This document shows positions 10,474 through 61,469 of a stretch of DNA of 64,000 bases, one piece after another. Source of the DNA: Candidatus Gottesmanbacteria bacterium (GTDB taxonomy: Bacteria > Patescibacteriota > Microgenomatia > UBA10105 > UBA927); contig JAHFKK010000001.1 in the NCBI GenBank assembly GCA_023245335.1, positions 427,282-491,281 of the forward strand, in the 5' to 3' direction. The position numbers and the translations under genes are program-made. The notes beneath the pieces are model-generated. The model made no database searches, had not been told where the DNA came from, and saw only the letters and a list, made by a program, of their open reading frames with translations. Positions within the stretch are counted from its first letter, which is position 1; each line of letters begins with the position of its first letter.

Positions 10474-10486
10474 TGTACCACATAGT

Positions 10487-11566: not shown

Positions 11567-11669
11567 CCAGGGACATGCTGGACAAAGTATAGCTAATCAT
11601 CAATACTGGTTCTAACGAGTACTACCGCATGGAACCGATGCAAAACGAACGCTATATAGCATTCCCCGA

Positions 11670-12089: not shown

Positions 12090-12099
12090 CACGAAACCA

Positions 12100-12741
12100 A
12101 TGAGAAATATCGTCACACGCGTGATGAGTCGGGTTTGGATCAAACGGAAAACATCCAAACGATTATTTCTTGCGGTTCCTATTCCGCTCCAATGGTCAGA
12201 AGCGTTATCCTCTTTGCAGGAGTCGGTGAAATCCCGCCATATTACGGGTGCCGTACCGACACGCTGGACGGAGAGAGATAGTCTCCACATGACCGTCCGC
12301 TTTATCGGTAATGTCGATGAACGGTGTATCCCGAGTTTGGTCACGACGATCCGGAGGCTTCTTCGGGAAGTGCGTCCATTTGAACTTCCATTCGAATCTG
12401 CGCATGTCGCAACGGTTGATGATCCCAAAATGATTTGGGCGACGTTCAGGAACGTCAAACCGTTTCAACAGGTGGTTACCAGGAGCACAAGGAGAATCGC
12501 GAAGTTCCTTTTCAAAGAATGTAACGGTACGGTGATGCACAACGGCCATGATGTCATCCCGCACGTGACGCTTGCCCGTCTGAACGGCACGGTTTCGTTT
12601 TCGGCTGATGTCCCGGGGAATATGCTTTTCCCCAAAGCATTACCCGTCTCATCTCTGGTTCTCTATGAATCTAGGACGTTTTCGACCGGGTCGGTGTATC
12701 ATACGATAGCAACGTTTCCGTTAAACGATATACGTATATGA
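12100..12741 (+). CDS. thpR: RNA 2',3'-cyclic phosphodiesterase (2H phosphoesterase, LigT/ThpR family)
   Basis: two H-x-T/S-x motifs (LHMTVRF and PHVTLARL); start trimmed to ATG 12100 to avoid overlapping the upstream ORF (ATG 12124 is an alternative). Confidence 0.7.
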   Translation: MRNIVTRVMSRVWIKRKTSKRLFLAVPIPLQWSEALSSLQESVKSRHITGAVPTRWTERDSLHMTVRFIGNVDERCIPSLVTTIRRLLREVRPFELPFESAHVATVDDPKMIWATFRNVKPFQQVVTRSTRRIAKFLFKECNGTVMHNGHDVIPHVTLARLNGTVSFSADVPGNMLFPKALPVSSLVLYESRTFSTGSVYHTIATFPLNDIRI

Positions 12742-13952: not shown

Positions 13953-14311
13953 CAGCCCGGCTGCGACAGATTATTCTCCAGAGAATGAGCATGGGGAGAA
14001 GGCAGATTGCCGTTAGGACAAAGGACTGGAATGAGCTGCACGACCGGGTAAAAGCGATGAGACGGGCATGGAGTGTCGGAAATTCTGCCGAGGCCTTCGC
14101 CTATTTTCCCCGGGTATACCGGTTAGTCGAAGAAATGGATTTGGACACATTATATGTTGCCAGGGAATATCCGCCGTCTTTACGAATGAAACCGGAAGTG
14201 TTGAGACACAGCATGTATGTTGAACCGGGTGAATTTTTTACACGCGTTGCGTTTGAATTGGATTACGAAAAGTATCCCGAAGGGCAAAAACGTCTCGAAG
14301 AACGTGTTTAA
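13949..14311 (+). CDS. hypothetical protein
   Basis: 120 aa ORF overlapping the upstream gene by 4 nt; no family recognised. Confidence 0.4.
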   Translation: MTARLRQIILQRMSMGRRQIAVRTKDWNELHDRVKAMRRAWSVGNSAEAFAYFPRVYRLVEEMDLDTLYVAREYPPSLRMKPEVLRHSMYVEPGEFFTRVAFELDYEKYPEGQKRLEERV

Positions 14312-14313
14312 AT

Positions 14314-16026
14314 CTATCCGAACGTAAACGCGTAGAGTTCTAGGTTCCCATCCAGGAATTCAAGCTTCAGTATATGGTCTCCCGGCTGTGACAAGGTGAT
14401 AAGTGTATACAATCGATCCGTGTCCACGGTGACGATACCATCTTTTACGTCCACTCCCGCTGATCCGCTGACGTCAGTTCCGTCCAGCGTCACTTTGAGT
14501 TTTCCTGATACTCCCGCTGTGTGCGGACGCATGACAAGGTAGGCGTTCTTCGCGCTGAAATGATAGATGAGCGTCGCACCGGCGCTTGGCATGGTGCGTT
14601 CCGCTCCGACATTCCATGCGCCGCCTAAGGCGAACGTGTTGGACGGTACGCTTGCGGGTGCCGTATAGGATGTTGTCTTATCCGGCTGTACGTTTTCGGC
14701 GCTTACCAGTCCCGCCATACGGTTATACCCGACATACGTTTCCGGCGTTTGGGAATATACGTGATATTCCGCGTTGTCGATTTTCGGTTGGTCCGTGACT
14801 CCGGTTTCGGCAAGGAGCGTTTGTATATATCCTTCCGATTCATTATAGTTTCCTTCACCGAAATGGGTGAAGCGGATCTTGCCGTTTTTGTCGATGAAGT
14901 ATTCCGCCGGCCAGTATTGGTTGGTATACGCGTTCCATGTGGCGTAATCGTTGTCCTGCATCACCGGATAGGTAATGCCGAAATCTTTTATGGCTTTTCC
15001 GACATTGTCGGCATTTTTTTCAAACTCAAACTCCGGTGTGTGTACGCCCACTATGACGAGGCCTTTGTCTTTGTATTTGGCATACCACGCTTTGGTATAG
15101 GGAAGCGTCCGGATGCAGTTGATGCACGTGTACGTCCAGAAGTCTACGATAACCACTTTGCCCCGAAGCGATTTTATGGAGAGTGCCGGACTATTAAACC
15201 ATTTGCCGCCGGCGACGAATTCCGGTGCTGTTCCATAGTTGGATTCGAGTAAATCTGTGATCATAGAACCTCCTTTATTATTTTTAATCGTTTGTAATTG
15301 TTTTTGGACGGCTTGATTATTTTCTATGTTGGTAAGCCCTGTGCCATAGGTCGGAAATTTGGTCAGGATATACGTTTGGAACTGCCGGTCCCAGGAGAAG
15401 AAGATGGCGATAGCTGTGAACAGCATGAGTATGCCGAATATTTTTTGGATATGTTCAGTATTTTTCGTGAGCCACGGATGATTGGTGAGTAATGTCCGTC
15501 CTCCGAAAGTGATTGCAAGAAGGGGAAGCGATGTGCCGAGTGCATAGACGAGTGTGATTATGATTGCGTTGAGTCCTACGGTTTGGGTCGCCGCAAGAGC
15601 GATAATTGAGGCTAAAATCGGTCCCACGCACGGGGTCCAGACCAATCCGAGACTTAGGCCCACCAATATTCCGGAAAGAAATCCGTCACCAGTCTGATTT
15701 TTGGGCCCGGCATTTGCCAGGCGCGAAAACATAAGCTCCAGCCGTTTTTGGAATGAGGGTATGACGAGCCCTAATCCGAATACTGCGATGACACCTACGG
15801 CGACAATCCGCAGAGCGTCAGGCGAGATGCCCGTCGCTTTCACAATTGCGGTGAGAAACAAAGTGAAGAATGTGAAGCTTGCGATAAATCCCGTAACCAC
15901 CCCAAACGGCCGGCGCTTGCCTCCCGTGATCGTGCCGGAGAGAACGATGGGAAGAATCGGTAATATGCATGGAGAAAGTATCGTTACTATTCCGCCAAGG
16001 AAAGCAAAAAGAACGAGAATAAGCAT
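14314..16026 (-). CDS. DipZ-like fusion: CcdA/DsbD transmembrane domain + thioredoxin-like domain + C-terminal beta-rich domain
   Basis: N-terminal CcdA with two Cys (SPCILP, TPCVGP); central redoxin CxxC (WTYTCINC); ~170 aa C-terminal extension. Confidence 0.8.
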   Translation of the reverse strand: MLILVLFAFLGGIVTILSPCILPILPIVLSGTITGGKRRPFGVVTGFIASFTFFTLFLTAIVKATGISPDALRIVAVGVIAVFGLGLVIPSFQKRLELMFSRLANAGPKNQTGDGFLSGILVGLSLGLVWTPCVGPILASIIALAATQTVGLNAIIITLVYALGTSLPLLAITFGGRTLLTNHPWLTKNTEHIQKIFGILMLFTAIAIFFSWDRQFQTYILTKFPTYGTGLTNIENNQAVQKQLQTIKNNKGGSMITDLLESNYGTAPEFVAGGKWFNSPALSIKSLRGKVVIVDFWTYTCINCIRTLPYTKAWYAKYKDKGLVIVGVHTPEFEFEKNADNVGKAIKDFGITYPVMQDNDYATWNAYTNQYWPAEYFIDKNGKIRFTHFGEGNYNESEGYIQTLLAETGVTDQPKIDNAEYHVYSQTPETYVGYNRMAGLVSAENVQPDKTTSYTAPASVPSNTFALGGAWNVGAERTMPSAGATLIYHFSAKNAYLVMRPHTAGVSGKLKVTLDGTDVSGSAGVDVKDGIVTVDTDRLYTLITLSQPGDHILKLEFLDGNLELYAFTFG

Positions 16027-29605: not shown

Positions 29606-30091
29606 ATGGATAACAATCGCAGAAGTCGTTCATACAATCAGGTACCGAGTGAGTTCGAAGAAAAAGTCGTCCAGGTCAATCGTGTTTCCAAAAAGACCAA
29701 AGGCGGCAATAAGATCGGATTTTCCGTTTTGGTCGTCGTCGGAGACAAAAAAGGTCGTGTCGGTGTCGGCTTGGGCGGGGCGCCGGATGTATCGTCAGCC
29801 GTGAAAAAAGCGGTTCTCTATGCACGGAAACACCTGTTTACCATACCGATGAAAAAAAGCACCATCCCGCATGTCGTATTTGTGAAAGTCGGGGCTGCGA
29901 AAATCATGCTGAAGCCAGCTCCTCCCGGAACGGGAGTCATCGCCGGAGGTCCGGTACGGTCCGTCGTGGAAGCTGCTGGCATTCGTGACATAAGCTCCAA
30001 GATTTTGGGAACCAAAAATAAAGCATCCAACGTCTATGCGACGATGGAGGCTTTGAAGCAATTGAAGCCGGCGCGGGCCGCACGATCATAA
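29606..30091 (+). CDS. rpsE: 30S ribosomal protein S5
   Basis: 161 aa with the S5 dsRBD and C-terminal domain. Confidence 0.95.
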   Translation: MDNNRRSRSYNQVPSEFEEKVVQVNRVSKKTKGGNKIGFSVLVVVGDKKGRVGVGLGGAPDVSSAVKKAVLYARKHLFTIPMKKSTIPHVVFVKVGAAKIMLKPAPPGTGVIAGGPVRSVVEAAGIRDISSKILGTKNKASNVYATMEALKQLKPARAARS

Positions 30092-30095
30092 CTAT

Positions 30096-30530
30096 ATGCA
30101 CACATCACAGTTACCATCTGTCGTAGACAGAAGTCATAAACGCCTCGGACGGGGACATGGGTCCGGCCGCGGGAAGACGTCAGGACGAGGCACCAAAGGG
30201 CAAAAAGCTCGCGGGACAATCCCTCCGTATTTCGAAGGGGGACAGCTATCGGTTTTTGAGCGGATGCCGTATTTGCGGGGCAAGCTTCGCAACAAATCAC
30301 TGAAGGCGAAACCCGTCATTATACAAGTCGGCGCTTTGAGTGTATTACCCGCGAAATCAACCGTCACGTTGGCGGCACTCCAAAAAGCTGGTATGGTGGA
30401 AGAAGATACCACAGGCGTAAAGATACTTTCAGGTGGTACGCTTACGGTCGCGCTGACGGTTGAAGTCCCGTGTTCTGAAGGGGCGAAGCGTGTCATAGAA
30501 AAAGCAGGTGGTAGTGTCACCCGTGTATGA
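30096..30530 (+). CDS. rplO: 50S ribosomal protein L15
   Basis: [24 protein letters not shown]; it directly follows rpsE, with no L30 gene between them. Confidence 0.95.
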
Positions 30531-31828: not shown

Positions 31829-32404
31829 ATGCATATCGTATTTTTTGGGCCGGAGGGATCCGGGAAGGGTACCCAGGCGAAACTTTTAAGCGACGCGTTG
31901 CATTTAGCTATACTGACATCCGGCGATCTTGTCCGCGATGCGGCGACCAACGATCAGGGCATCATCGGTGAAGTTTGCCGTCAGGCGCTTTCCGAAGGAA
32001 AATATGTCGCGGACAGCGAAATGTTTGTTCTTTGGAAGCACCGTCTCAAGCAGGACGATGCGATGGGCGGATGGATCATGGACGGATTTCCCAGGAACGT
32101 AGAACAAGCGAAGTTTTTGGATGACAAGATTGATAAATACGGCTATAAAGTAGAAAAAGTCATTTATCTCAACCTTTCCGAAGAGGAATCTATTCGAAGA
32201 CTTTTGAAGCGTGCCCGGCCTCTCCATTCCGGAAGCACTGAACTCCATGATTCTCCTGAACGCATCAAACAGCGGTTGTCTATATATAAGGAAGGCGAGA
32301 AGAATGTGCTTGAGTACTACCGTCAAAAAGGCATCCTCGTCGAGATAAATGCAGACCGTTCGATCGAAGACGTACATCAGGATATTTTGTCCCACGTAAA
32401 ATGA
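31829..32404 (+). CDS. adk: adenylate kinase (short form without Zn lid)
   Basis: GPEGSGKGTQA P-loop; 191 aa. Confidence 0.9.
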   Translation: MHIVFFGPEGSGKGTQAKLLSDALHLAILTSGDLVRDAATNDQGIIGEVCRQALSEGKYVADSEMFVLWKHRLKQDDAMGGWIMDGFPRNVEQAKFLDDKIDKYGYKVEKVIYLNLSEEESIRRLLKRARPLHSGSTELHDSPERIKQRLSIYKEGEKNVLEYYRQKGILVEINADRSIEDVHQDILSHVK

Positions 32405-32955
32405 GTGACGCATTGACGCTCGTTGCTATCGTTGGCCTTCCCGGCTCAGGTAAAACTGTCGCCGCGGATTTTTTCCGCTCACACGGGTTTACTGTTCTTC
32501 GGTTCGGAGATCAGACGGATATAGGACTCAAGGAACTGGGGTTGCCGATGAATGAGGTAAATGAACGAACCTATAGGGAGAATATCCGTAAAGAATTAGG
32601 CATGGCAGCCATGGCGATAAAGATAGAGCCCAGGATTACTGCGGCATCGAAAGAAAGCAACAGAATAGTACTCGATGGCATGCGGAGTTTCGAAGAATAT
32701 GTATACCTCAAGGGTAAATTTCCCTTTCTTACCGTTCTTTGCATTTTCGCTCCTCCTCACGTGAGGTATGAACGGCTGGCAGCCCGAAAGGTCCGTCCGT
32801 TAACCAGGGAAGAATCAAAAGCCCGTGACATGTCGGAAATTACGGCGTTAAACTCCGGCGGTCCCATAGCAATCGCGGATTACCTTATCCAAAACGAAGG
32901 CTCGTCCGATACATTTGCATCGGAGCTCGAACGGTATCGAGAGACACTATCATGA
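32401..32955 (+). CDS. UPF0200-type P-loop kinase (archaeal adenylate/dephospho-CoA-kinase-like)
   Basis: Walker A GLPGSGKT; overall similarity from memory to archaeal UPF0200 proteins (LRFGD, DGMRS, ADYLIQNEGS). Confidence 0.55.
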   Translation: MSDALTLVAIVGLPGSGKTVAADFFRSHGFTVLRFGDQTDIGLKELGLPMNEVNERTYRENIRKELGMAAMAIKIEPRITAASKESNRIVLDGMRSFEEYVYLKGKFPFLTVLCIFAPPHVRYERLAARKVRPLTREESKARDMSEITALNSGGPIAIADYLIQNEGSSDTFASELERYRETLS

Positions 32956-33731
32956 AACAGCAGAATACGGAAAAAAAGATTATTGCAATGACTGAAGGCG
33001 GCGCTAAGATGGGTGCGATTCTTTCGGAGCTTCTTGCATTTTCGCAGCCCGGCGTGACGCTTATAGAAGTGGAGGAGCTTGCTATGAAGCGGATTAAAGA
33101 ATCCGGCGGGCAGCCTTCATTTACGACGGTCGAAGATTATAAGTGGGCGACCTGCCTTTGTGTAGACGACGTCATCGTACACGGCATTCCGAATGGCAGA
33201 GTCCTAAAAGACGGCGATGTGTTTACCATCGACGTCGGTATGATTTATAAGGGATACCATACAGATACAGCATGGACGAAGATCATCGGTACGGAAACGG
33301 ATAGCGTAAAACTTGCGAAGAACGAAGCGTTTTTGGAAGCAGGTCGCGAGGCCCTGCGGCAGGCGATAGCGGTCGCACGGCCGGGCAACCGCATCGGGCA
33401 TATTTCCCAGATTACTCAGCGTATCGTTGAGGGCGCGGGGTATGGAGTCGTTACGTCACTTGTTGGTCACGGAGTAGGTGAAGAGCTCCATATGCCTCCA
33501 CAGATCCCGGGCTATCTCAAAGGAAAAATTGAATCCACATTGCCGCTCCGTCCCGGCATGACCATCGCCATCGAAATTATCTACAGCATGGGGAATCCGG
33601 CAGTATACTATGTCAATGAAGACGGCTGGTCGATCGCGACTCGGGACCACTCACTTTCGGCGGTTTTCGAGCAAACAGTACTCATTACAGAAGGTGACCC
33701 CGTTGCCCTGACTCCGGTTCCGGAAGTATAG
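32952..33731 (+). CDS. map: methionine aminopeptidase type I
   Basis: metal-binding residues in family-typical positions (D ... D ... H ... E ... E); 259 aa. Confidence 0.93.
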   Translation: MKQQNTEKKIIAMTEGGAKMGAILSELLAFSQPGVTLIEVEELAMKRIKESGGQPSFTTVEDYKWATCLCVDDVIVHGIPNGRVLKDGDVFTIDVGMIYKGYHTDTAWTKIIGTETDSVKLAKNEAFLEAGREALRQAIAVARPGNRIGHISQITQRIVEGAGYGVVTSLVGHGVGEELHMPPQIPGYLKGKIESTLPLRPGMTIAIEIIYSMGNPAVYYVNEDGWSIATRDHSLSAVFEQTVLITEGDPVALTPVPEV

Positions 33732-33776
33732 TAATCCTCTTGACGCTAAAGCTACGATTAGAGTATCCTCAAGTGC

Positions 33777-35777
33777 ATGAAGAAATTATTCCAGATAGCC
33801 GGAGTATTCATTCTTCTGGGAGTCATTGGATTTTTTTATCGACAACGGTCGCTTGCTCCCACGCATCACATCAAGCTCTATTGGTTTATTCCGGACGGCG
33901 TACGGGCGGAGCCCTCGGTATTCACCGTCTTTGAATGGGCGAAGGAAGGGAAACTTCCTAATATCAAAAAACTCATGGATCGGGGAACCTACGGATATTC
34001 CTATCCCAATTTCCCGAGTCACACTCCCACGAACTTTGCCGCACTTCTCACCGGTACATATCCTGAGGTAAACGGCGTCGATGATGGTCCGATGCGCGAG
34101 GTGGGGAAACCTCTTAACGCAGTTGCCGTTCCCGGTTTCCGGTCGACTGCGAAGAAAGTTCCTCCTATTTGGAAAACATTAGAAGACGCGGGGATGAAGG
34201 TCGCCATATTGTCTGTGCCGGGCTCAACGCCGCCGGAGGTCCAAAAAGGCGTCGTTATCCGTGGGAGATGGGGCGGGTGGGGCGCTGATTTCAATGCAAT
34301 TAATTTTGAAACAAAGGGAGACCTCGAACAGCGGGTGAAGCAAGGGAGAGCGGTGCGCCTTTTCTATTTTGGTGCCGTACTCACCAACTATGTCGACGGT
34401 ACGACCCCGGAAGGATGGGAGAATGCACCGAAAAGTTATACACCCCCCGTAGAAATTCCGCTCCTTGGATGGGGGAAGACGATCTACGCCTATATGTATG
34501 ATTCCAAAGATGACAGCAAACCGGTTTTTGACCGTGTAGCGTTTTCTTTGGATAAGAAGACGATACTTGGCGATATACCTGCGGGTGACTGGACGGATTG
34601 GAAACCTGTTACGTTAGTCTGGAAAACAGCAGATGCATCGGTAAACGTCCCGTCTCATTTTCGTGCGACCGTCATCAAGCTCGGCGACAGCGGATTTTTC
34701 CGTATCAGAATCGTCTACGATACGCTCAACAGGTATATAACCTTCCCGGATACAGCATCCGATATGCTGGAAGCATCTGTTGGTCCCATGGTGGATTTTG
34801 CCGATAATTATCCTGCACAGCTTATTTATTATCCTGAAGATAAAAAGACATTCATGGATGAGTCTGACTTTTCATTTGACTGGCATACCCGCGCGGTGTC
34901 GGCTCTTTCCAAAGATTTTTCACCGGATGTCGTCATTCATGATATCTATACCCCGAACCAGATGCTGACGAGCAAATGGTGGATGGGATATGTCGATCCC
35001 TCCGGAAGCGGATACAATACGTTGCCGGCAGCCGAACGCGAAAAACTTTGGCAGGAAGTCCAGGGCATGTATAAAAAGCTGGATGCCATGGTAGGGGAAA
35101 TACTCAAGGTTTCTGATTCGCAAACATATATCGTCTTCAGTTCCGATCATGGTGCGGTGCCCCTCAATCAAAACGTCAACCTCAACAATCTTTTTGCCAA
35201 AAAAGGCTGGTTGAAATTTACGATCGATCCCAAAACAGGCGAACCAAATATCGACTGGGCGCATTCACAAGTCATATATCTAAAAATGGCACACGTATAC
35301 GTGAATCCCAATGGTTTAGCAGGTCCTTATGTGCGGGCAAGCGGCCCGACATATGAAGCACTCCGCGAGGAAGTCATTCAGACTTTGAAGGATCTCCGGG
35401 ATGATAACGGGAATGCACCGGTTGTCGACATCGTCAAATGGGAGAACGCGAAGGCATACATGCAACTGGATCCGGATAGGATCGGTGATCTGGTCATCGC
35501 AAACAGTCCAGGATTTGGATGGAACGAAGAGATGACCAATGATCTTGCTGTGTTTTCGACACCGGCAGTCACCGGATACAAACAGGCAATCAAGGCTATT
35601 GATGTTCCGGGGATGTGGACGCCGTTTATCATCGCCGGGCCAGGCATCAAGCAGAATAATTTCCTGGGGAATAAACCATTTACCCTCATCAATCAGTACC
35701 CGACCATTATGAAAGCTTTGGGGGTGAAAGTTCCCGCGTTCGTCCAGGGGAAGGCGCTCGATATCTTCTCGCGCTAA
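33777..35777 (+). CDS. membrane-anchored nucleotide pyrophosphatase/phosphodiesterase (NPP, alkaline phosphatase superfamily)
   Basis: N-terminal TM; catalytic-Thr motif YPNFPSHTPTNFAALLTGTYPEVNGV matches the NPP signature; SDHG metal motif. Confidence 0.75.
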   Translation: MKKLFQIAGVFILLGVIGFFYRQRSLAPTHHIKLYWFIPDGVRAEPSVFTVFEWAKEGKLPNIKKLMDRGTYGYSYPNFPSHTPTNFAALLTGTYPEVNGVDDGPMREVGKPLNAVAVPGFRSTAKKVPPIWKTLEDAGMKVAILSVPGSTPPEVQKGVVIRGRWGGWGADFNAINFETKGDLEQRVKQGRAVRLFYFGAVLTNYVDGTTPEGWENAPKSYTPPVEIPLLGWGKTIYAYMYDSKDDSKPVFDRVAFSLDKKTILGDIPAGDWTDWKPVTLVWKTADASVNVPSHFRATVIKLGDSGFFRIRIVYDTLNRYITFPDTASDMLEASVGPMVDFADNYPAQLIYYPEDKKTFMDESDFSFDWHTRAVSALSKDFSPDVVIHDIYTPNQMLTSKWWMGYVDPSGSGYNTLPAAEREKLWQEVQGMYKKLDAMVGEILKVSDSQTYIVFSSDHGAVPLNQNVNLNNLFAKKGWLKFTIDPKTGEPNIDWAHSQVIYLKMAHVYVNPNGLAGPYVRASGPTYEALREEVIQTLKDLRDDNGNAPVVDIVKWENAKAYMQLDPDRIGDLVIANSPGFGWNEEMTNDLAVFSTPAVTGYKQAIKAIDVPGMWTPFIIAGPGIKQNNFLGNKPFTLINQYPTIMKALGVKVPAFVQGKALDIFSR

Positions 35778-36412
35778 TTACTTTTCCCGCACAGCATGGT
35801 AATCATCTGCTGAGTGATTTCTTGTTCATGAGCAGTAAATTCTTTGGTAGGAGCGATAAGTTCTACCCGTAACGTAAGAGAATTAGCGGGACAATACATA
35901 AACATCATTATCCCTTTGTAGACTGCCTGATTTTGTGAGCAGGAACCGAACGTCATGCGGTTATTGAGATACCCTACGAAATAACGGGCATTGGTTCCAT
36001 CGGGAAGCTTAACAGTTTCATACCGGGGTGCGAAGCTCGGATCGCATACGATGGTGTCGGAAATATCTCCGGGGTACGGGGCCGGTGCTTTTTCAAAAAG
36101 CGCTTTCATGCGGATGATTGATGCATCGAGTTGTTTTTGTGCGTCTGCGGCATTGGTCGGTTGGGCTTCGATACGGATGTATCTGGTCCCGGATGCATAT
36201 AATGCGCGATAGGCAGCTTCGGTGTCCGTATACATTTCTTTCAGTCGGTAGGAGGAAATGCCAGGTATCGACACGCATGACAGATTACGGCACAGCGACG
36301 GGGAGATGAATTGGTGTGATAGGAAGATGCCGCTCACGATACAACCAATAAATATCACGGTCATACCAATGAGCATCCTGGTGTTCAAGAGGCGCATATT
36401 ATAATATGTCAA
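35774..36412 (-). CDS. hypothetical membrane-anchored protein
   Basis: 212 aa ORF on the opposite strand within the NPP cluster; N-terminal TM; no family recognised. Confidence 0.4.
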   Translation of the reverse strand: MTYYNMRLLNTRMLIGMTVIFIGCIVSGIFLSHQFISPSLCRNLSCVSIPGISSYRLKEMYTDTEAAYRALYASGTRYIRIEAQPTNAADAQKQLDASIIRMKALFEKAPAPYPGDISDTIVCDPSFAPRYETVKLPDGTNARYFVGYLNNRMTFGSCSQNQAVYKGIMMFMYCPANSLTLRVELIAPTKEFTAHEQEITQQMITMLCGKSN

Positions 36413-36421
36413 CTATACCAT

Positions 36422-37834
36422 ATGATGGCGTTATACAAGATAAAAAAAGGATTGATAATTATTGCAGCGTCCCTGTGTGTCGGATATATCTTGTACCTTT
36501 TCGTAGTCCGAGTCGTACCCATATCAGGTCATACAGCGACCCGTGTCCCCATATGTCAGGGTTGCAATGTCGTCCTTATTGCCATTGATCCGTTTCGTGC
36601 AGACGGCCTCCATGTGCTTGGGAACCAAAGGACAATAACGCCAACTCTCGACCGGCTTGCACGGCAGGGATATTTGTTTACGAACGCGTTTGCCGTATCT
36701 TCGTGGACGCTTCCGTCTGCCATGAGTCTTATGACCGGCACGTACCCCTCGCAGCATAAAATTATAAACAAAGAACTCATCGGTCAGACCGAACAGCAAG
36801 GGATCGTTCCCGCTCGTCTTGCCGACACGAATCCGGGAATGGAAACCTTAGCATCCATTCTCAAGTCCCATGGGTATGTCACAGGAGGATTTGCCGGGGG
36901 GGCAGCGCTTGATCCGTCGTACGGATTTGATCGGGGGTTTGACCGGTATGTTAGTGATGGAGATTTTGAAGGGCTGCAAACAACACAACCCAAAGCCCTT
37001 GATTTCATACGATCGCACGTTCATGACCGTCTGTTTATTTTTTTGCACGGATTTGACGTGCATGGACAATATATCCCGCCGGAGGGATTAACCAAGAAAT
37101 ATATACCGCCAGGTTACAATGGAATGCTTACGGGATCAAAAGACGAACAAAAAGCATTACGAGAAGAAGGGGTGAAACAGCAATCAATTCACCTTACTCC
37201 TTTGGATGTCGGATTTCTCCGGGGAATCTATGACGAAAAAGTAGAGCGGGTTGATGCACAGATCGCAGAGTTTCTTGCGGCATATAAAGCACTGCATGTG
37301 AAAAATAAAACAGTCTTCATATTTACGTCGGATCATGGCGACGAATTTTATGAGCATGGCAGGATTGATCATGGCATGACCCTTTTTGATGAAGTTATTC
37401 ATGTGCCGCTTATTATTGTCGTTCCGGGAGTTTCTCCCGGATACCGTGTCACGGATCAGGTTCGAAATATCGATATTATGCCCACGATACTTTCTCTGGT
37501 GGGGCTTGTACCATCACCGGAGGGGAAACGCCAAATGGAGGGCGTGAGCATTATCCCATCCATGCAAGGCGAACATCAGCGTTTGGATCTTTTCGCCGAA
37601 ACATCTTACCGGTACGCAACTTTTGAGCGCGCGGTCAGAACGTGGGATGGATGGAAACTCATCTATGATCAGAATGCGTCAACAGATCACATATTTAATC
37701 TGAAAAGAGATCCCGCGGAACTGAGTGATTTAATATGGAAAAATAATGCAAAGGAACAGGAATTGATGACCAAGTTATTCCTATGGACAGATATGATTGA
37801 AAAATCCGTGACAGGGCGGAATGGACGACCATGA
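36422..37834 (+). CDS. NPP/sulfatase-like alkaline-phosphatase-superfamily hydrolase, paralog A (Thr nucleophile predicted)
   Basis: TM anchor; CQGCNVVLIAIDPFRAD; SSWTLPSAMSLMTGTYPSQH aligns to the NPP TFPNH ... TG.YPE.H motif; SDHGDEFYEHG. Confidence 0.7.
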   Translation: MMALYKIKKGLIIIAASLCVGYILYLFVVRVVPISGHTATRVPICQGCNVVLIAIDPFRADGLHVLGNQRTITPTLDRLARQGYLFTNAFAVSSWTLPSAMSLMTGTYPSQHKIINKELIGQTEQQGIVPARLADTNPGMETLASILKSHGYVTGGFAGGAALDPSYGFDRGFDRYVSDGDFEGLQTTQPKALDFIRSHVHDRLFIFLHGFDVHGQYIPPEGLTKKYIPPGYNGMLTGSKDEQKALREEGVKQQSIHLTPLDVGFLRGIYDEKVERVDAQIAEFLAAYKALHVKNKTVFIFTSDHGDEFYEHGRIDHGMTLFDEVIHVPLIIVVPGVSPGYRVTDQVRNIDIMPTILSLVGLVPSPEGKRQMEGVSIIPSMQGEHQRLDLFAETSYRYATFERAVRTWDGWKLIYDQNASTDHIFNLKRDPAELSDLIWKNNAKEQELMTKLFLWTDMIEKSVTGRNGRP

Positions 37835-39447
37835 AGCATTTTTCCTCCGTATTCAATACTCGCTTCGTTATGCTTCTCCTTGCCATACTCATGTGTGCGG
37901 TTCTCTGGGAGTCGGGGATAGTAGGGAGGATAAGCCGTGATATATACGCGAGAATTCCGTTTGCCTTCGCTGGTATTCCTACATGTCCGGATTGTAATGT
38001 TATTCTCGTATCGTTGGACGTACTGCGGGCAGATGATTTACCGTGTTACGGATACAGCCGCAATACAGCTCCGAACTTATGCGCATTTGCTGAGCGCAAT
38101 ACGTATTTTACCCGTTTTTACTCCGTGTCTTCGTACACCCTGGACGATCATATTTCTATGGTTACCGGTCTGTATCCGTCGACGCATCACGTGCTCGTGC
38201 CTTTTCGGGATTCTCTTAACCCTTCGATTCCGACGCTTGCAGAATCCTTACAGGCCCATGGCTACCGGACTTTGTATTTAGGCGTGACGGACGACCCGAA
38301 TTTACCGCTCGATAAAGGCGTGGGGCGGGGATTTACTGAAATTCATAGGTTAGACAGAAGTGATTCGAGTTTACAGACTCAGTTACGAACTATCCTTCCT
38401 ACATTGCAGGACCATAAGCCGACGTTTCTTTTTGTCCATTCGTATCTTTTGCATGCCCCATTTCTTGTCGGTCCCGGCCCGAGACGATATGCAGAGGGTG
38501 CGTTCCCCGAGATCCCGCTGACGCCGAAGGAATATAAGGTCAATAGCATTCCGTTTTACGCATCGGTGCTTAATGAGCTCCAGCTTCGCGTAGACGCCAA
38601 CGATGCGCCGAAAAGCGTTCGTCGAAACACATCTATTATTTCGGATTTGTCCTCAGCCGTCGTCTCCGGTGATCTTACTCGCGCACAGGCGATCTTTTTG
38701 GGATCGTTATATTGGCTTGAACAAACGAACGCCTACGATATTTGGTATTGGAAACATATTGATCCGTATAACGATACGATGATTGCGTACCTGAGAGGAC
38801 TGTATGACGAGCGCATCAATACAGCGGACGACGCGCTGAAGCCGTTATTGGATTTTGTCGATCAGCCGGAAATGAAGCGAAAAACCGTGGTCATTATTAC
38901 GTCCGACCATGGGGAAGAATTTCAGGAACACGGCGAGTTTGGTCATGACTATAACCTCTATAACACATCGACCTACATTCCGTTTATCATCGCCGCCCCC
39001 AAAATACAACGGAGTATCAATAATTCACTCGCGCAGGTAACTGATATTTTCCCGACAGTTCTGGATTTGGTAGGAATACCTAAGCCCAGAGTAGAAGGAA
39101 AGAGTCTCTTGCCTCTATTGGTCGGGAGCGCTGGCGCAACAGGTGACCAGTATGCGGTAAGCGAGTATCGCGGAACCGTGATACAGTCAATTCAGGATGG
39201 TCGCTGGAAGCTGTATGTGCATCATGAAAATCCAAAGGCACCATGGGTAGAGCTGTATGATCTCGTAAGCGACCCGGGGGAGTACCATAATGTGTCAGGT
39301 GGTTTCCAAGCCGTACAAGAACGACTCACGAAGGCACTTGACGTAATACAAGAGAAAGCTCCGCGATACGCACCTGTCATCGGAGGATTTCCGGATTGGA
39401 TAGACAAAAAAAAGCAGAAGAATATCATTGAGCACGGATATTTTTGA
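37831..39447 (+). CDS. NPP/sulfatase-like alkaline-phosphatase-superfamily hydrolase, paralog B
   Basis: CPDCNVILVSLDVLRAD; SSYTLDDHISMVTGLYPSTHHV; SDHGEEFQEHG; close paralog of the next gene. Confidence 0.7.
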   Translation: MKHFSSVFNTRFVMLLLAILMCAVLWESGIVGRISRDIYARIPFAFAGIPTCPDCNVILVSLDVLRADDLPCYGYSRNTAPNLCAFAERNTYFTRFYSVSSYTLDDHISMVTGLYPSTHHVLVPFRDSLNPSIPTLAESLQAHGYRTLYLGVTDDPNLPLDKGVGRGFTEIHRLDRSDSSLQTQLRTILPTLQDHKPTFLFVHSYLLHAPFLVGPGPRRYAEGAFPEIPLTPKEYKVNSIPFYASVLNELQLRVDANDAPKSVRRNTSIISDLSSAVVSGDLTRAQAIFLGSLYWLEQTNAYDIWYWKHIDPYNDTMIAYLRGLYDERINTADDALKPLLDFVDQPEMKRKTVVIITSDHGEEFQEHGEFGHDYNLYNTSTYIPFIIAAPKIQRSINNSLAQVTDIFPTVLDLVGIPKPRVEGKSLLPLLVGSAGATGDQYAVSEYRGTVIQSIQDGRWKLYVHHENPKAPWVELYDLVSDPGEYHNVSGGFQAVQERLTKALDVIQEKAPRYAPVIGGFPDWIDKKKQKNIIEHGYF

Positions 39448-39483
39448 TATACTGGCTGAAGTTTGTGCAAGTAGAACGCCGCT

Positions 39484-41124
39484 ATGCAAATATCTCGGCA
39501 TATAGCTATAAAGCAGTACCGTTATCTCGCGTTCGGCGTTGCAGTAACGCTCTGCGTGATTGCAATCGCCGCAGTATTACTTCACCAGCAAGCTGCGGTT
39601 CTTCACGTAGAGGATGAGATAATCCAAAGAATGCCATTTGCCGTGCCGGGTCTACCCACATGCCCCGGCTGCAACGTTATTCTCGTTTCATTGGATACTT
39701 TGCGTGCGGATGAGTTGCCTTGCTACGGATACGCACGGAATACCGCGCCCAATCTATGTGCCTTTGCCGGTCAGAATATACAGTTTAATCGGTTGTATTC
39801 AGAATCCTCAAACACATTAGATGGCCACATGTCCATATTTACCGGATTGTATCCAAGTACGCATCACGTCATTAATGAACTAACGGATGCGTTAAATCCG
39901 AACATCAAGACACTGACAGAAACTCTTGCGGGTCATGGGTATAAAACCATATATGCAGGAACGACGGGTGATCCGAATTTGCCGATCAAGCTCGGGTTAG
40001 GGCGCGGGTTTACAGAAATTCATCCTATGCAATCTCTGCAACCAGGATGGAAGGAGGATTATATGCGACTCCTCCCGGAACTCACGGGTACCAAACCGGC
40101 ATTTATTTTTTTGCACACGTATGCCGTCCACGATCCCTACGTTGCCGGTCACGGCCCCCGTTTGTACGTGCCGGGATCGATTCAGGGATTGCCGATGACG
40201 CTCGACGAGTTTTCCCCGACGAGTATAGAATTTTATCAATTTGTCCTCAGTGACTATCGTATTCGTCTTGCGGCAAGTGATACGTCAGACAGTGTCGCCA
40301 GAAGTCAGGCAATCGTTTCCGGCTTACAGGATGCGATAGCAACAGGAAATATCAAGAGCGGCAAGGCTATATTCGATTCATTTCCGTCGTATGAACAGTA
40401 CAAATATCATGACGGTTGGTATTGGCATTTGATCGACAAGCATAATCCCGGTGATGTTGCGTATATTCGAGGGTTATATGACGAGCGGCTTCATAGTCTT
40501 GATGCCAATCTCAAACCGCTTCTTGAGTTTGTCTCCAGGCCGGAGATCAAACGAAAGACCATCATCATATTTGTCGCAGATCACGGGGAAGAGTTTATGG
40601 AACACCGTCATATGTTGCATACCAATAATATTTACAATACCGTTACCCACGTGCCGTTTATTATGGCGGCCCCCCGCATCCCGTCCGGCCAGATAAACGC
40701 TCTTGTTCAGAATATCGACCTATATCCGACGATATTGGCTTTGACCGGTATTCAGTCGCCGGGCGCTGTCGAAGGGAATAGCATCCTGCCTATTCTGTTG
40801 GGGGATCGGTCACAAAAAGGAGATCCGTACGTCATAAGCGAACATCGCAATGATTTCGTCCGCAGTATACAGGATGGCAGCTGGAAGCTCTATGTCAATA
40901 AGCTCGAAAATGGCACCATCACTCATGAGCTGTATAACCTTGTTGTTGATCCGGCCGAACAGCACAATGTGCTCACAATGCATCCCGACATTCAGAGTCG
41001 GCTGACGAAGGCCCTCAAGACTATATTATCCAGATCACCGGTCTATAAGCCGATAAACAATGAATTTCCCGACTGGATCGATCAAAAAACGCGTGATGAA
41101 CTCTCGACAGAAGGGTATTTTTGA
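39484..41124 (+). CDS. NPP/sulfatase-like alkaline-phosphatase-superfamily hydrolase, paralog C
   Basis: CPGCNVILVSLDTLRAD; SSNTLDGHMSIFTGLYPSTHHV; ADHGEEFMEH; colinear with paralog B. Confidence 0.7.
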   Translation: MQISRHIAIKQYRYLAFGVAVTLCVIAIAAVLLHQQAAVLHVEDEIIQRMPFAVPGLPTCPGCNVILVSLDTLRADELPCYGYARNTAPNLCAFAGQNIQFNRLYSESSNTLDGHMSIFTGLYPSTHHVINELTDALNPNIKTLTETLAGHGYKTIYAGTTGDPNLPIKLGLGRGFTEIHPMQSLQPGWKEDYMRLLPELTGTKPAFIFLHTYAVHDPYVAGHGPRLYVPGSIQGLPMTLDEFSPTSIEFYQFVLSDYRIRLAASDTSDSVARSQAIVSGLQDAIATGNIKSGKAIFDSFPSYEQYKYHDGWYWHLIDKHNPGDVAYIRGLYDERLHSLDANLKPLLEFVSRPEIKRKTIIIFVADHGEEFMEHRHMLHTNNIYNTVTHVPFIMAAPRIPSGQINALVQNIDLYPTILALTGIQSPGAVEGNSILPILLGDRSQKGDPYVISEHRNDFVRSIQDGSWKLYVNKLENGTITHELYNLVVDPAEQHNVLTMHPDIQSRLTKALKTILSRSPVYKPINNEFPDWIDQKTRDELSTEGYF

Positions 41125-41130
41125 CGCCCA

Positions 41131-41159
41131 TTGACCGAGAAACCGGCTTCGGGTATAAT
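41131..41159 (+). promoter_or_regulatory. sigma70-type promoter for infA (TTGACC-17-TATAAT)
   Basis: TTGACC 41131-41136 and TATAAT 41154-41159; a second TTGACG lies at 41121. Confidence 0.5.
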
Positions 41160-41216
41160 AAGCTTCTTATAGATTTCCCTCTCTAACTAAGAGGGAAGTC
41201 TTGTTTGTATCTTGTT

Positions 41217-41435
41217 ATGACGCATCAGGGAAATATAGAAATAGAGGGGGAAGTAACCGAGTGTCTGCCGAATACATTATTTCGTGTAAAGTTAGCGAAT
41301 GGGCATATTGTACTTTGTCATCTTTCGGGCAAAATGAGGCTGAATTTCATCCGCATCATGCCGGGAGACAGGGTGAGGTTGGAAATGACCCCGTATGATC
41401 CGACGAAGGGAAGAATTACGTATAGGATGAAATAA
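41217..41435 (+). CDS. infA: translation initiation factor IF-1
   Basis: [25 protein letters not shown] ... SGKMR; the alternative TTG start at 41205 has better spacing to GAGGGAAG. Confidence 0.9.
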
Positions 41436-41439
41436 ACGT

Positions 41440-41553
41440 ATGAAAGTCCGAGCAAGCATCAAGCCAATGTGTAGAAAATGTAAGATCGTCCGCCGCCGGG
41501 GGCGGGTATTTGTCATTTGTGACAACCCGAAGCACAAACAGCGACAAGGATAA
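41440..41553 (+). CDS. rpmJ: 50S ribosomal protein L36
   Basis: Hand-translated [37 protein letters not shown], 37 aa; absent from the ORF track because it is shorter than 60 aa. Confidence 0.9.
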
Positions 41554-57507: not shown

Positions 57508-59037
57508 ATGCTTGCCCAAATTCAGTCCGGAGCCGTCGTTGGTCTCGACGCCGTTCCCGTGACGGTAGAAGTGGACATTGCGTCTCTTGGGTTGCCGTCA
57601 TTCACCATCGTCGGTCTTCCGGATAAAGCAGTAGAAGAGAGTCGGGAACGGGTGCGTGCGGCCATAAAAAATAGTGGTGCAGAATTTCCGGCGAAACGGA
57701 TTACCGTAAATCTCGCTCCTGCGGATCTTCCGAAAGTGGGACCGGCATATGATCTGCCCATCGCACTCGGTATACTTTACGCTTCGGGTCAGCTAGGAAT
57801 AATTCCCAAAGACGCGGTATTCGTCGGTGAGCTCTCTCTGGATGGCAGTGTGCGGCACACAAACGGCGTATTGCCGCTTGCCATGTTAGTCACCAAGATG
57901 CACGGAGAGAAGAACCTTTTTGTCCCGATTTCGGATGCAAGGGAAGCAGCCATCATAAAAGAAATACATGTCTATGGTGTACCGTCTTTGTTAGCATTAT
58001 TTCATCACTTGTCCGCAACCAAACTCATCGCGAGAGAGACACATGTATCATTTACTAAGGTGGTTGGATCTCAAGCATTTGAGTCGGATATGGCTGATAT
58101 TCAGGGCCAGGAGCACGCCAAGCGCGCTTTAGAGATTGCAGCCGCCGGCGGGCACAATCTCTTCATGCAGGGGCCTCCTGGAGCCGGGAAGACCATGCTG
58201 GCGCGTACGTTGCCCTCAATACTCCCGAGCCTCACAGAAGACGAGGCGCTCGAAGTCACAAAAATATATTCGGTGACGGGTAATTTGCCGCCGGGTGAAT
58301 CCGTGATGAAATTTCGTCCGTTTCGATCTCCTCACCATACGACGTCCCGAATCGGGCTTATCGGCGGAGGGACACATCCTTCCCCGGGCGAGATATCGCT
58401 TGCGCATCGGGGCGTACTCTTCCTGGATGAATTCCCGGAATTTCCGAGGAATGTCCTGGAAGCGCTGCGGCAACCGATGGAGGATGGTGTCGTGAGTATA
58501 TCCCGTGCCGTGGGATCGGTGCGGTATCCTGCCAAATTCATGCTGATTGCGGCGGCCAACCCGTGTCCATGCGGCAACAGCGGTTCGGAAACCCGGCGGT
58601 GCACCTGCCTTCCCGGCATGGTTCTTCGCTACCAGAAGCGTGTATCCGGTCCGATTATCGACCGCATAGATCTTCATGTCCATGTCCCGACGGTGGCAAC
58701 AGAGAAACTGACCGATACGTCGACAAAAAATGAATCCTCCGCTCATATCCGGATACGTGTTCAAAAGGCGAGAGATAGGCAAACCAAACGGTTGCACCGT
58801 TTCGCGCTTCGGGCAAATGCTGAAATGCCGACGCGTGTGGTGCGGGAATGCTGCCCCCTTTCCCCGGAATGCGAACAGTTTCTTCGTCTGGCGGTAACGA
58901 AGTTCCGTCTGACTGCCCGGGGGTATTATCGGGTCACGAAAGTCGCACGTACCATCGCCGATTTATCGGGTGACACCGTGATTTCTGTTCCTCACATAGC
59001 CGAAGCGCTGCAATACCGGCCTATCGAGGAGACCTAA
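57508..59037 (+). CDS. YifB/ComM-family Mg-chelatase-like AAA+ ATPase
   Basis: N-terminal Lon-like domain, Walker A GPPGAGKT, C-terminal ChlI domain. Confidence 0.88.
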   Translation: MLAQIQSGAVVGLDAVPVTVEVDIASLGLPSFTIVGLPDKAVEESRERVRAAIKNSGAEFPAKRITVNLAPADLPKVGPAYDLPIALGILYASGQLGIIPKDAVFVGELSLDGSVRHTNGVLPLAMLVTKMHGEKNLFVPISDAREAAIIKEIHVYGVPSLLALFHHLSATKLIARETHVSFTKVVGSQAFESDMADIQGQEHAKRALEIAAAGGHNLFMQGPPGAGKTMLARTLPSILPSLTEDEALEVTKIYSVTGNLPPGESVMKFRPFRSPHHTTSRIGLIGGGTHPSPGEISLAHRGVLFLDEFPEFPRNVLEALRQPMEDGVVSISRAVGSVRYPAKFMLIAAANPCPCGNSGSETRRCTCLPGMVLRYQKRVSGPIIDRIDLHVHVPTVATEKLTDTSTKNESSAHIRIRVQKARDRQTKRLHRFALRANAEMPTRVVRECCPLSPECEQFLRLAVTKFRLTARGYYRVTKVARTIADLSGDTVISVPHIAEALQYRPIEET

Positions 59038-59811: not shown

Positions 59812-60297
59812 ATGGTGTTCAATACAACTGTTATAATTTGGGCAGTAGTGGTGGGGATTGTTATCTGGCTTACGGTACTTACAGTGCTGGTCATTCAGTC
59901 AGTTTCCCATTATAATAGATTAAGTAACGGTATAACGAAAAAAGGATTGCAGGAGGTGTTAGACGCGATACTGCGGACACTTCAGACAGTACGGGGAAAG
60001 ACAGAGAATTTGGAACGAGTCGTTGAAGCTCTCGGGACTGATGGAGAGCTTCATATACAAAGGATAGGCATCATACGATTTAATCCGTTTGCGGACACCG
60101 GAGGTGCACAAAGCTTTGTCATCGCGCTTCTGGATAAGATGAATAACGGTATAGTCATGACGTCATTATACGGGAGAAGCAGTAATCGTTGGTATGTGAA
60201 GGAGCTTGTTTCAGGGAAAGGGAAGGACATTACTTTATCGAAGGAAGAGGAATCGGCAATAGATAAAGCGAAGCATATTGGGAGCATGCGCGTATGA
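59812..60297 (+). CDS. DUF4446-family protein
   Basis: N-terminal TM; RFNPFADTGGAQSFVIALLD ... NGIVMTSLYGR matches the DUF4446 signature from memory. Confidence 0.55.
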   Translation: MVFNTTVIIWAVVVGIVIWLTVLTVLVIQSVSHYNRLSNGITKKGLQEVLDAILRTLQTVRGKTENLERVVEALGTDGELHIQRIGIIRFNPFADTGGAQSFVIALLDKMNNGIVMTSLYGRSSNRWYVKELVSGKGKDITLSKEEESAIDKAKHIGSMRV

Positions 60298-61469
60298 ATA
60301 AACAACAGTTTATTACCACAATCGTCATCGGCCTGGCTCTCTATCTCATAGCGACGGGACTTTCGTTCGCCGGATTTTCGTATCTGGGTAAGATTGCCCC
60401 TCCAAAAACGACCACCACGAGTACGACGGGAACTCAAGGGCACCTTACGATTGATCCGTCCATCCCGCGCACTGAGCCGTGTCCTATAAACGGAAAACTC
60501 TACACCGCACAGGAAAAAGGAATTTGGGAAAAGCGCCGGCCGCTTGCGGTCATGATCGAAAATCATCAGGAAGCACGGCCGCAATCAGGACTGTCGTACG
60601 CAGATGTGGTATATGAGTCAGTTGCAGAAGGCGGGATCACCAGGTTTATGGGCATTTTTTACTGCGGTGTGGCGGCACAATCAGTCAATGTGGCGCCAGT
60701 CAGAAGTGCGAGGACCTATTTCCTCCCGTGGGTATTGGAATATGACGCTTTGTATAATCACGTGGGCGGAGCCGGAAACTGTGATGATGACACGGTAGAT
60801 GAGCGTGCCAAAGCGCTCTGCCAGATTGATCAGTACAAGGTAAAGAACATGGATCAGTTCGGCATTTCATTCCCGACATGCTACCGAAATTATGACCGCC
60901 TGGACCACCCTGTCGCGACAGAGCACACTATGGTCTGCGTGACCGACAAGCTTATCCAGCTTGCCGCGTCGCGTGGATGGACCAACGTCGATAGTGCCGG
61001 TGTCTCGTGGGATAAGAATTTCACTCCATGGAAGTTTAAGGACGATGCCAAGGAAAGCGATCGGGGTACAGCAACGTCGATAAGCTTCGTCGCCTGGAAA
61101 GGGTATGAAGCAGAATATGGCGTGCGATGGGATTACGATAAAATCGCAAACGTATATAAACGGTTCAATGCAGGAGTCGCACACACGGATCTTGAGACGA
61201 AACAGCAGCTCGCGGCAAAAGCAGTCGTTGTTCTATTTGCCAAAGAGACGGGTCCTGTCGATGGACACGGGCATCTCCTGTATGGCAATATCGGAACTGG
61301 AGATGCGATAGCGTTTGAAGACGGGAAGGCAACCAAAGCGATATGGCGCAAGGCGACCAAAAATGCACGGACGGTTTTTTATGATGCGGCTACGAATAAA
61401 GAAATTACCTTTACTCGCGGTCAATTATGGATCGAAATGCTGCCCACCGGTACGCCTGTGACGTACTAA
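60294..61469 (+). CDS. DUF3048-family (YerB-like) secreted/lipo-protein
   Basis: N-terminal TM/signal; PLAVMIENHQEARPQSGLSYADVVYESVAEGGITRF matches DUF3048. Confidence 0.65.
   Translation: MNKQQFITTIVIGLALYLIATGLSFAGFSYLGKIAPPKTTTTSTTGTQGHLTIDPSIPRTEPCPINGKLYTAQEKGIWEKRRPLAVMIENHQEARPQSGLSYADVVYESVAEGGITRFMGIFYCGVAAQSVNVAPVRSARTYFLPWVLEYDALYNHVGGAGNCDDDTVDERAKALCQIDQYKVKNMDQFGISFPTCYRNYDRLDHPVATEHTMVCVTDKLIQLAASRGWTNVDSAGVSWDKNFTPWKFKDDAKESDRGTATSISFVAWKGYEAEYGVRWDYDKIANVYKRFNAGVAHTDLETKQQLAAKAVVVLFAKETGPVDGHGHLLYGNIGTGDAIAFEDGKATKAIWRKATKNARTVFYDAATNKEITFTRGQLWIEMLPTGTPVTY

Follow-up and report, generated by a model that had tools for sequence, protein, structure and literature searches.

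A relocated, membrane-anchored enzyme module at the map-infA junction of a Gottesmanbacteria-like subclade, with a possible role in envelope phosphoester chemistry

The window analyzed here, a 64,000-nucleotide stretch of contig JAHFKK010000001.1 from Candidatus Gottesmanbacteria bacterium, carries a block of ~7.4 kb and five open reading frames (ORFs) between map and infA. The block encodes a 666-residue enzyme (P666), a 212-residue protein on the opposite strand (H212) and three further enzymes of 470, 538 and 546 residues (S470, S538 and S546; Table 1). Comparison of loci showed that P666, a PsbP-like protein of the H212 type and enzymes of the Pfam family PF00884 with a threonine in place of the usual nucleophile (“Thr-type”) are a conserved module, which in most genomes lies elsewhere and was moved here as a unit. 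With about even confidence, we read the block as an extracytoplasmic three-component module that was relocated into the map-infA gap in one Gottesmanbacteria-like subclade and serves phosphoester chemistry at the envelope.

The initial annotation, made from the sequence alone, had described an insertion of this size at the map-infA junction and had raised the worry of a mis-assembly. The coordinates of the insertion were confirmed. The exact P666 protein is found on three contigs of different assemblies (ENA, 311 kb; Logan, 16 kb; NCBI, 1.2 Mb), and the two contigs displayed, those of ENA and Logan, agree in gene order all the way from the ribosomal proteins, across the block, to rpoA. We also fetched loci of relatives for comparison, labeled here by L-numbers. 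The order map-P666-H212 (opposite strand)-PF00884(n)-infA recurs in L003, L005/6, L007, L012-L019, L098, L103 and L121, so that the block occupies the same junction in about 14 related genomes (species-level relatives), where the homologues are 42-76% identical to the window proteins. Mis-assembly is ruled out because three assemblies and many relatives share the arrangement. The number of PF00884 genes per insertion locus ranges from one to five: L019, the closest relative, has one, of the short type only; L003, L005 and L012-L018 have two, the window three and L007 five. The PF00884 series of a cluster always opens with the short gene, of the S470 type.

The insertion is also unusual, as had been claimed. 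We surveyed 80 metagenome loci whose InfA is 69-94% identical to that of the window; in the 75 informative ones, map adjoins infA in 72 and the block is present in 3. In one relative with an empty site (L092), the infA promoter and leader hairpin of the window are present and the promoter overlaps the 3′ end of map. The empty junction in 72 of 75 relatives, together with the empty site of L092, indicates that the insertion is a derived trait, and it is one of a single subclade of Gottesmanbacteria-like Microgenomates. Chance placement of a recent foreign island, or of an assembly chimera, within the ribosomal cluster would account for the odd position and for the absence of the insertion from most relatives, and the P666 family does bear signs of transfer between very distant lineages. 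We nevertheless regard this as extremely improbable: the junctions are identical in three independent assemblies, which also dispels the earlier worry, and there are ~14 species-level carriers in which the identities of the block proteins track those of the flanking ribosomal genes. The GC content of the block equals that of its flanks, no integrase or other mobility gene was found among the ORFs at the block, and a search for flanking direct or inverted repeats gave only short matches, mostly between the paralogs. A recent mobile element is ruled out on the same grounds (no integrase, no terminal repeats and no GC shift).

P666 matches PF01663 alone in Pfam, with 95.9 bits in two stretches against a cut-off of 23. 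Its assignment to the alkaline phosphatase superfamily by the initial annotation was borne out. The residues D40, T83, D457 and H458 are invariant among 31 homologues, and D40 and T83 stand in register with the metal Asp of the ENPP1 motif DGFRAEY and with the Thr nucleophile of its PTKT motif. T83 is the putative nucleophile, and D40, D457 and H458 are putative metal ligands. Compared with the nucleotide pyrophosphatases/phosphodiesterases (NPPs; PF01663, with Xanthomonas NPP, ENPP1-7, PafA and PhnA), P666 passes the PF01663 threshold and shares with ENPP1 the first metal Asp (FIPDGVRAE versus DGFRAEY), the Thr nucleophile and a following TG.YPE..G motif (here YPNFPSHTPTNF..TGTYPE), and it has an SDHG Asp/His pair. 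Unlike NPPs, it has a single-pass anchor, is always linked to PsbP-like and Thr-type PF00884 genes, and has no counterpart for ~350 of its 666 residues, which include a large β-sandwich insert at approximately residues 203-314. When a P666 profile was compared with the sequences of the PDB, only the N-terminal ~110 residues aligned (E ~1e-4 to 1e-5).

P666 is as conserved as ribosomal proteins. It is 74-76% identical to its orthologues in L003 and L005, where the ribosomal proteins S4 and L6 reach 73-78%, RpoA 82-84% and Map 59%, and it is still 61-71% identical in distant Microgenomates. Because its identity is about that of S4 and L6 and exceeds that of Map, P666 behaves as a strongly constrained core gene. 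The PF00884 copies are about 46-55% identical to those of L003/L005 and 24-39% identical to those of distant Microgenomates, and they behave like a rapidly evolving family subject to duplication and loss. H212 lies at 48-49% and 28-36%, respectively, in the same comparisons.

The block had been described as four NPP-type paralogs, and a search against PF01663 and PF00884 upheld this for one of the four. PF01663 is the best family for P666; for S470, S538 and S546 the best match is PF00884 (118-126 bits) with the C-terminal subdomain SGSH_C (45-52 bits), and PF01663 reaches only 42-58 bits. A profile built from the three PF00884 proteins scored P666 at only E=7e-4, indicating that they are not close paralogs of it. 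S546 is 48% identical to S538. The NPP-like motifs that had been quoted are indeed present (SS.TL...TG.YPS.H and SDHG.EF.EHG), with the nucleophile stretches T-L-P-S-A, T-L-D-D-H and T-L-D-G-H in the three proteins (SSWTLPSA in S470), and the C/S-x-P-x-R formylglycine motif is absent, also as had been claimed. The Thr aligns to the formylglycine/Ser position of the sulfatases 4uph and 7p24, and the Arg of the motif is replaced by Ala or His.

These substitutions extend through the family. In an alignment of 54 PF00884 family sequences, D71, H127 and H379 are present in all 54, T111 in 53, D366 in 50 and H367 in 45, the rest having Asn at this last position. The alignment shows no motif Arg and, at the columns expected for GKWHLG, no conserved Lys/His, a reading that for GKWHLG is positional, against the canonical sulfatase motif, as the alignment itself contains no sulfatase sequence. 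The column of the second sulfate-binding Lys is the invariant H379. Of 89 module-linked PF00884 ORFs from bacteria and archaea, 80 have Thr in the nucleophile column and 2 have Ser; the other 7 are fragments with a gap there, and Cys occurs in none. No C/S-x-P-x-R motif or motif Arg was found in the 82 alignable copies. The proteins also stayed below the cut-offs of the NCBIfam sulfatase models (the best being PRK13759 arylsulfatase, at 98-131 bits versus 481), of the curated LtaS, EptA and MCR models (15-41 bits versus 500-1250) and, by far, of the PafA model.

By these residues the proteins resemble LtaS, EptA and other phosphoryl-transfer enzymes of the Thr type in catalytic make-up, and not sulfatases. 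Gottesman-, Levy- and Microgenomates records call homologues of S546 “sulfatase”; the subfamily so annotated is almost certainly not one of sulfatases. A true sulfatase was rejected on the nucleophile motif and the Lys/Arg residues, in line with the earlier reading of a Thr nucleophile and no formylglycine. The three proteins match S1 sulfatases and phosphonate monoester hydrolases (7p24, 4uph, choline sulfatase) over the entire fold, down to the SGSH_C subdomain at the C terminus, and have the first Asp, the DHG pair and the TG.YP..H segment in common with them. They differ from S1 sulfatases in the Thr that replaces Cys/Ser-formylglycine, the Ala or His that replaces the motif Arg, the lack of the GKWHLG Lys/His, the invariant His in place of the second Lys, and the membrane anchor. 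With LtaS, EptA/MCR-1, OpgB and YejM they share the Pfam family, an extracytoplasmic catalytic domain and the kind of catalytic set, in which an acidic residue, a Thr, an Asp and a His surround a single metal and further His residues are present. Unlike LtaS/EptA, to which their sequence similarity is weak, they possess a sulfatase-type C-terminal subdomain. LtaS/EptA-type phosphotransferases offer the best analogy for the probable mode of action of the three proteins. The Mn-dependent arylsulfatase EfAS was considered as a Thr-type relative and was ruled out, since it uses a formylglycine made from Cys61.

H212 matched no family in Pfam or NCBIfam. Its fold is a PsbP/DcrB/LpqN-like α-β sandwich, as the fold similarity showed, at a sequence identity of only 5-13% to PsbP/Mog1/DcrB/LpqN-type proteins; its structural relatives are the envelope proteins DcrB, LpqN, MTC28 and TiME. 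Six invariant Cys and the motifs APAPYPG..SD..CD and GYLNNR.TFGSCS are specific to the H212 family. Each of the five block proteins has one N-terminal hydrophobic segment (19 residues) preceded by basic residues, which supports the earlier proposal of an N-terminal anchor and an extracytoplasmic domain: all five are predicted to be anchored by this segment with their bulk outside. The conserved Cys of H212 and of the PF00884 proteins, which have a conserved CxxC and a second Cys pair, fit an extracytoplasmic location. Elsewhere in the window (14314-16026, minus strand) a 570-residue protein joins a DsbD transmembrane domain with redoxin and thioredoxin-like domains. It may supply reducing equivalents for disulfide handling outside the cytoplasm, which bears on the Cys-rich H212 and PF00884 proteins.

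Signals at both ends indicate that the block is its own transcription unit between the spc-type operon and the infA-rpmJ-rpsM unit. The promoter-like site that follows map has 9 of 12 consensus matches in the scan, and a TTGAC element lies 35-45 nt 5′ of the P666 ATG in all 14 insertion loci, with varying bases around it. At infA, the pattern TTGACC-N17-TA[TC]AAT was seen in all related loci examined by eye (L003, L005 and L007) and in 9 of 9 loci where a script located infA. In the infA leader (41131-41216), the hairpin, TTTCCCTCTCTAACTAAGAGGGAA, has a minimum free energy of -17.2 kcal/mol (z = -4.2), and its core CCCTCT-N7-AGAGGG recurs in L092 and, apart from L007 with a different hairpin at this place, in every insertion locus examined. 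An Rfam scan of the whole window returned no family, for this hairpin or elsewhere. The hairpin could serve to terminate transcription arriving from upstream or to attenuate infA. With a -35 element after map in 14 of 14 loci and with infA keeping its own promoter and hairpin, the earlier view of enzymes embedded in the core translation operon could not be maintained. Around the H212 start (36397-36425), TTGACATATTATAATATG contains perfect -35 and -10 hexamers that are too close together for one promoter. Because the starts of H212 and S470 are only 10-25 nt apart, the H212 promoter must lie inside the S470 coding sequence.

To follow the module beyond this junction, we scanned one genome per species with the P666 profile and, out of 195 relatives, retained the best 80 loci. 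Among these best 80, P666 is 61-87% identical in Gottesman-, Woese-, Levy- and Collierbacteria and 48-57% identical, near full length, in Parcubacteria, Peribacteria, DPANN archaea (Woesearchaeota, Nanoarchaeota and Iainarchaeum), Omnitrophota, Planctomycetota, Elusimicrobia, Bacteroidota and Bacteriovorax. Where a locus offered at least 3 kb to each side (54 loci), we searched its ORFs with profiles: 39 have an H212 homologue, 37 have a Thr-type PF00884 gene, and 33 have both within 5 kb of P666, DPANN archaea included. At sites other than map-infA, the trio occurs in further Microgenomates and in Parcubacteria, DPANN archaea, Omnitrophota, Planctomycetota and Bacteroidota. The opposite orientation of H212 is kept in most Microgenomates loci and not in most other lineages. 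In Bacteroidota and Omnitrophota variants an arylsulfotransferase-like β-propeller protein (PF14269) stands between P666 and H212 and replaces PF00884. The order in L071 (7603-13769) is radical SAM-SPASM, an unannotated protein of ~400 residues, P666, the PF14269 protein and the H212 homologue, and this type of variant also occurs in L063, L069, L070, L074, L077, L079 and L091.

Several loci show where the module can sit. In L009 the trio lies between a ComM-type Mg-chelatase gene and DUF4446-DUF3048-SecDF. The same flanks are present in the window without the module (Mg_chelatase, 57508-59037; DUF3048, 60294-61469; SecD, 62110-63474): the Mg-chelatase gene is followed by ~770 bp of small ORFs, an unannotated ORF of 161 residues, DUF3048 and SecD, and the corresponding interval of L009 (4066-17214) is filled by P666-H212-PF00884. 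The Mg-chelatase/DUF3048 interval is thus a second, empty, module site in the genome of the window. In L084 (Parcubacteria, CG10_big_fil_rev_8_21_14_0_10_38_31) the order at 6619-14210 is SecY-adk-Map-H212 (plus strand)-P666-218-residue protein-PF00884. This module directly after map suggests that the post-map site may have served more than once. L010 has two copies of the trio beside a PMT_2 glycosyltransferase and an epimerase, and in L011 the trio lies inside a cluster of epimerases, GT2, GT4 and Wzy_C. Close neighbors in other lineages, archaea too, include PMT_2 (GT-C), GT2, GT4, GT8, Wzy_C and sugar epimerases. To count neighbor families, neighbor proteins were aligned and each member was scanned; by a rough estimate, GT2 and ABC ATPases occur about as often as chance would predict, and we did not use them as strong evidence. 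Two kinds of radical SAM gene recur at distances of up to 7 kb from P666 among L020-L091, namely 17 B12-binding genes at 12 loci and 16 SPASM genes at 9 loci; these neighbors occur in DPANN, Planctomycetota and other lineages.

Our literature searches found no description of this family, the module or the junction. The enzyme superfamilies and the fold of H212 are already known. New relative to the literature searched are the Thr-type, single-anchor subfamily with an arylsulfatase fold, the highly conserved P666 subfamily and the linkage of both to a PsbP-like protein in bacteria and archaea alike.

Table 1. Coordinates of the block and its flanking features in the window
Feature	Position	Strand	Remarks
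map (methionine aminopeptidase)	32952-33731	+	PF00557, 133.8 bits; left flank, closes the spc-type block
Promoter-like site TTGACG-18-TATCCT	33740-33769	+	Directly 3′ of the map stop, 5′ of the P666 gene
P666, divergent PF01663 (NPP-like) enzyme, 666 residues, predicted membrane-anchored	33777-35777	+	Pfam
H212, 212 residues, predicted N-terminal membrane helix and extracytoplasmic PsbP/DcrB/LpqN-like domain	35774-36412	-	
S470, “short” Thr-type PF00884 enzyme, 470 residues, one predicted N-terminal anchor	36422-37834	+	PF00884, 126 bits, and SGSH_C
S538, “long” Thr-type PF00884 paralog, 538 residues, TLDDH motif	37831-39447	+	PF00884, 123.5 bits
S546, second “long” Thr-type PF00884 paralog, 546 residues, TLDGH motif	39484-41124	+	PF00884, 117.6 bits
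infA promoter-like site TTGACC-17-TATAAT	41131-41159	+	11 of 12 matches
infA-leader hairpin followed by a U-rich tract, terminator- or attenuator-like	41171-41201	+	Top match of the terminator scan
infA	41205-41435	+	PF01176, 95.6 bits; right flank
rpmJ	41440-41553		After infA, with rpsM next; ORFs

The genes of the block are tightly packed. P666 and H212 are convergent, their stops overlapping by 4 nt, and the S538 start overlaps the S470 stop by 4 nt. The minus-strand gene had been called divergent, which is correct with respect to the S470 gene and not with respect to P666. Gene callers start H212 at 36397, giving 207 residues, and S538 at 37870, giving 525 residues; the latter would cut into the anchor, since the hydrophobic segment of S538 (residues 4-34) is whole only from the start at 37831. 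Upstream of the block, the ORFs and synteny give the order secY-adk-(kinase)-map. The kinase-like gene (P-loop, AAA_18; 32401-32955) has weak (d)CMP kinase and CoaE matches, its orthologue in L005 is 64% identical, and L003 has a cytidylate kinase at this spot. These extra kinase genes in the window, L005 and L003 indicate that the adk-map junction is also variable in the clade. Further upstream, rpsE (S5) is directly followed by rplO (L15) without rpmD (L30), at 29606-30530 of the window; the absence of L30 is a known trait of the candidate phyla radiation (CPR). The assignment to Gottesmanbacteria-like Microgenomates draws on this trait and on the names in the source records.

The function that we favor for the module would proceed as follows. 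Judged by their active-site residues, P666 and the PF00884 enzymes would form a covalent phospho-Thr intermediate on a metal centre, with Thr in the PF00884 proteins standing where sulfatases have formylglycine and with their sulfate-binding Arg/Lys replaced, mostly by His. Both enzyme types would hydrolyse or transfer phosphoester groups, most likely phosphodiesters, at the outer face of the membrane, and H212 would be a substrate-presenting or scaffolding partner. The substrates would be envelope-associated, either the phospho-head groups of lipids or surface glycans joined by phosphodiester links. The invariant step would fall to P666, and the PF00884 duplicates (one “short” plus zero to four fast-evolving “long” copies, with two long copies in the window) would cover variable substrates. 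We lean mildly toward such an envelope role, in lipid head-group or glycoconjugate modification, over nutrient scavenging, because P666 is conserved like housekeeping machinery, because H212 resembles envelope or lipid-handling proteins in structure and because the Microgenomates and DPANN neighbors are often PMT_2, GT2, GT4, GT8, Wzy_C or epimerase genes. In a narrower version, which seems to us rather unlikely, the three components would assemble at the cell surface and remodel lipids taken up from a host or the surroundings by acting on their phospho-head groups. Such a complex would exchange or remove head groups on glycerophospholipids, with P666 performing the invariant phosphodiester step, the LpqN/DcrB-like protein handing over the lipid and the PF00884 copies giving head-group specificity; the machine would have spread horizontally among lineages unable to make lipids of their own (CPR and DPANN) and some of their neighbors.

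There are several observations that weigh against the envelope reading. The second metal site of P666 (Asp/His/His in NPPs) could not be mapped by alignment to any solved NPP, and the active-site loops of P666 have a predicted local distance difference test score below 50 in the AlphaFold2 (AF2) model. The PF00884 proteins have one membrane segment versus five or more in the LtaS/EptA transferases. The substrate and the direction of the reaction (hydrolase versus transferase) are predictions from sequence, our literature searches returned no characterised member of either enzyme subfamily or of the H212 family, and the promoter and terminator calls come from consensus and conservation, not from transcripts. 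The enrichment of glycan genes is modest, GT2 being present in 14 of 72 loci, about what a rough estimate gives for chance. In 5-6 non-CPR loci an ABC importer with an NMT1/phosphonate-type binding protein lies beside the module, and other loci have arylsulfotransferase (ASST)-like and radical SAM genes; all these neighbors fit scavenging or sulfur-ester chemistry better. For these reasons, the modest glycan signal together with the importer, radical SAM and ASST-like neighbors, scavenging stays a serious rival.

Under nutrient scavenging, the enzymes would hydrolyse nucleotides, nucleic-acid fragments, phospholipid head groups or organophosphates at the surface, and a CPR cell with a reduced genome would import the products. 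We judge this possible, if distinctly less likely than an envelope role. The organism is CPR-like (it lacks L30, and homologues are named Gottesmanbacteria or Patescibacteria), the enzymes are predicted to face outward, PF01663 includes nucleotide pyrophosphatases, and a variable PF00884 copy number would fit variable external substrates; the importers just mentioned also count in its favor. adk and a second gene resembling nucleoside monophosphate kinases lie just upstream (cytidylate kinase in L003), but adk holds that position in most bacteria anyway. A ribosomal-protein-like conservation of P666, with 50-57% identity across domains, would be unusual for a scavenging hydrolase, and the constant PsbP/LpqN-like partner has no obvious role in simple hydrolysis. 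No transporter was found in or beside the block in the window or the Microgenomates loci, and the neighbors in Microgenomates and DPANN are mostly glycan genes. Sulfate-ester metabolism, in which the PF00884 proteins would be functional sulfatases, or partners of sulfotransferases, with sulfated glycans or lipids as substrates, draws on the name of their best Pfam family (“Sulfatase”, with SGSH_C), on S1 sulfatases being the nearest solved structures by sequence, on the arylsulfotransferase-like protein that takes the place of the PF00884 gene in Bacteroidota/Omnitrophota variants, and on the recurrence nearby of radical SAM-SPASM genes, to whose class the anaerobic sulfatase maturase belongs. 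It is improbable in view of the 82 of 82 alignable module-linked copies that lack C/S-x-P-x-R (80 with Thr and 2 with Ser), the replacement of the GKWHLG Lys/His and of the second Lys, the scores far under the NCBIfam sulfatase equivalog cut-offs (e.g., 130 versus 481) and the absence of a maturase gene from the block of this window.

The placement between map and infA is a lineage marker, a lineage-specific rearrangement in which a module landed at an operon boundary, and it implies no new operon logic. The analysis defines a clear subfamily that is annotated “sulfatase” and whose members are almost certainly something else, which matters for metabolic inference from metagenomes. If our reading of the module is correct, two enzymes of the alkaline phosphatase superfamily and a PsbP/LpqN-like partner would make up an uncharacterised and widespread extracytoplasmic module that is common to CPR bacteria, DPANN archaea and several other phyla. 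The ribosomal-protein-like conservation of one of its components would make it a candidate for a core envelope function in organisms of which the surface biology and the supply of lipids are poorly known. The interest would rise further if the module were a machine for editing lipid or glycan head groups that is common to CPR and DPANN.

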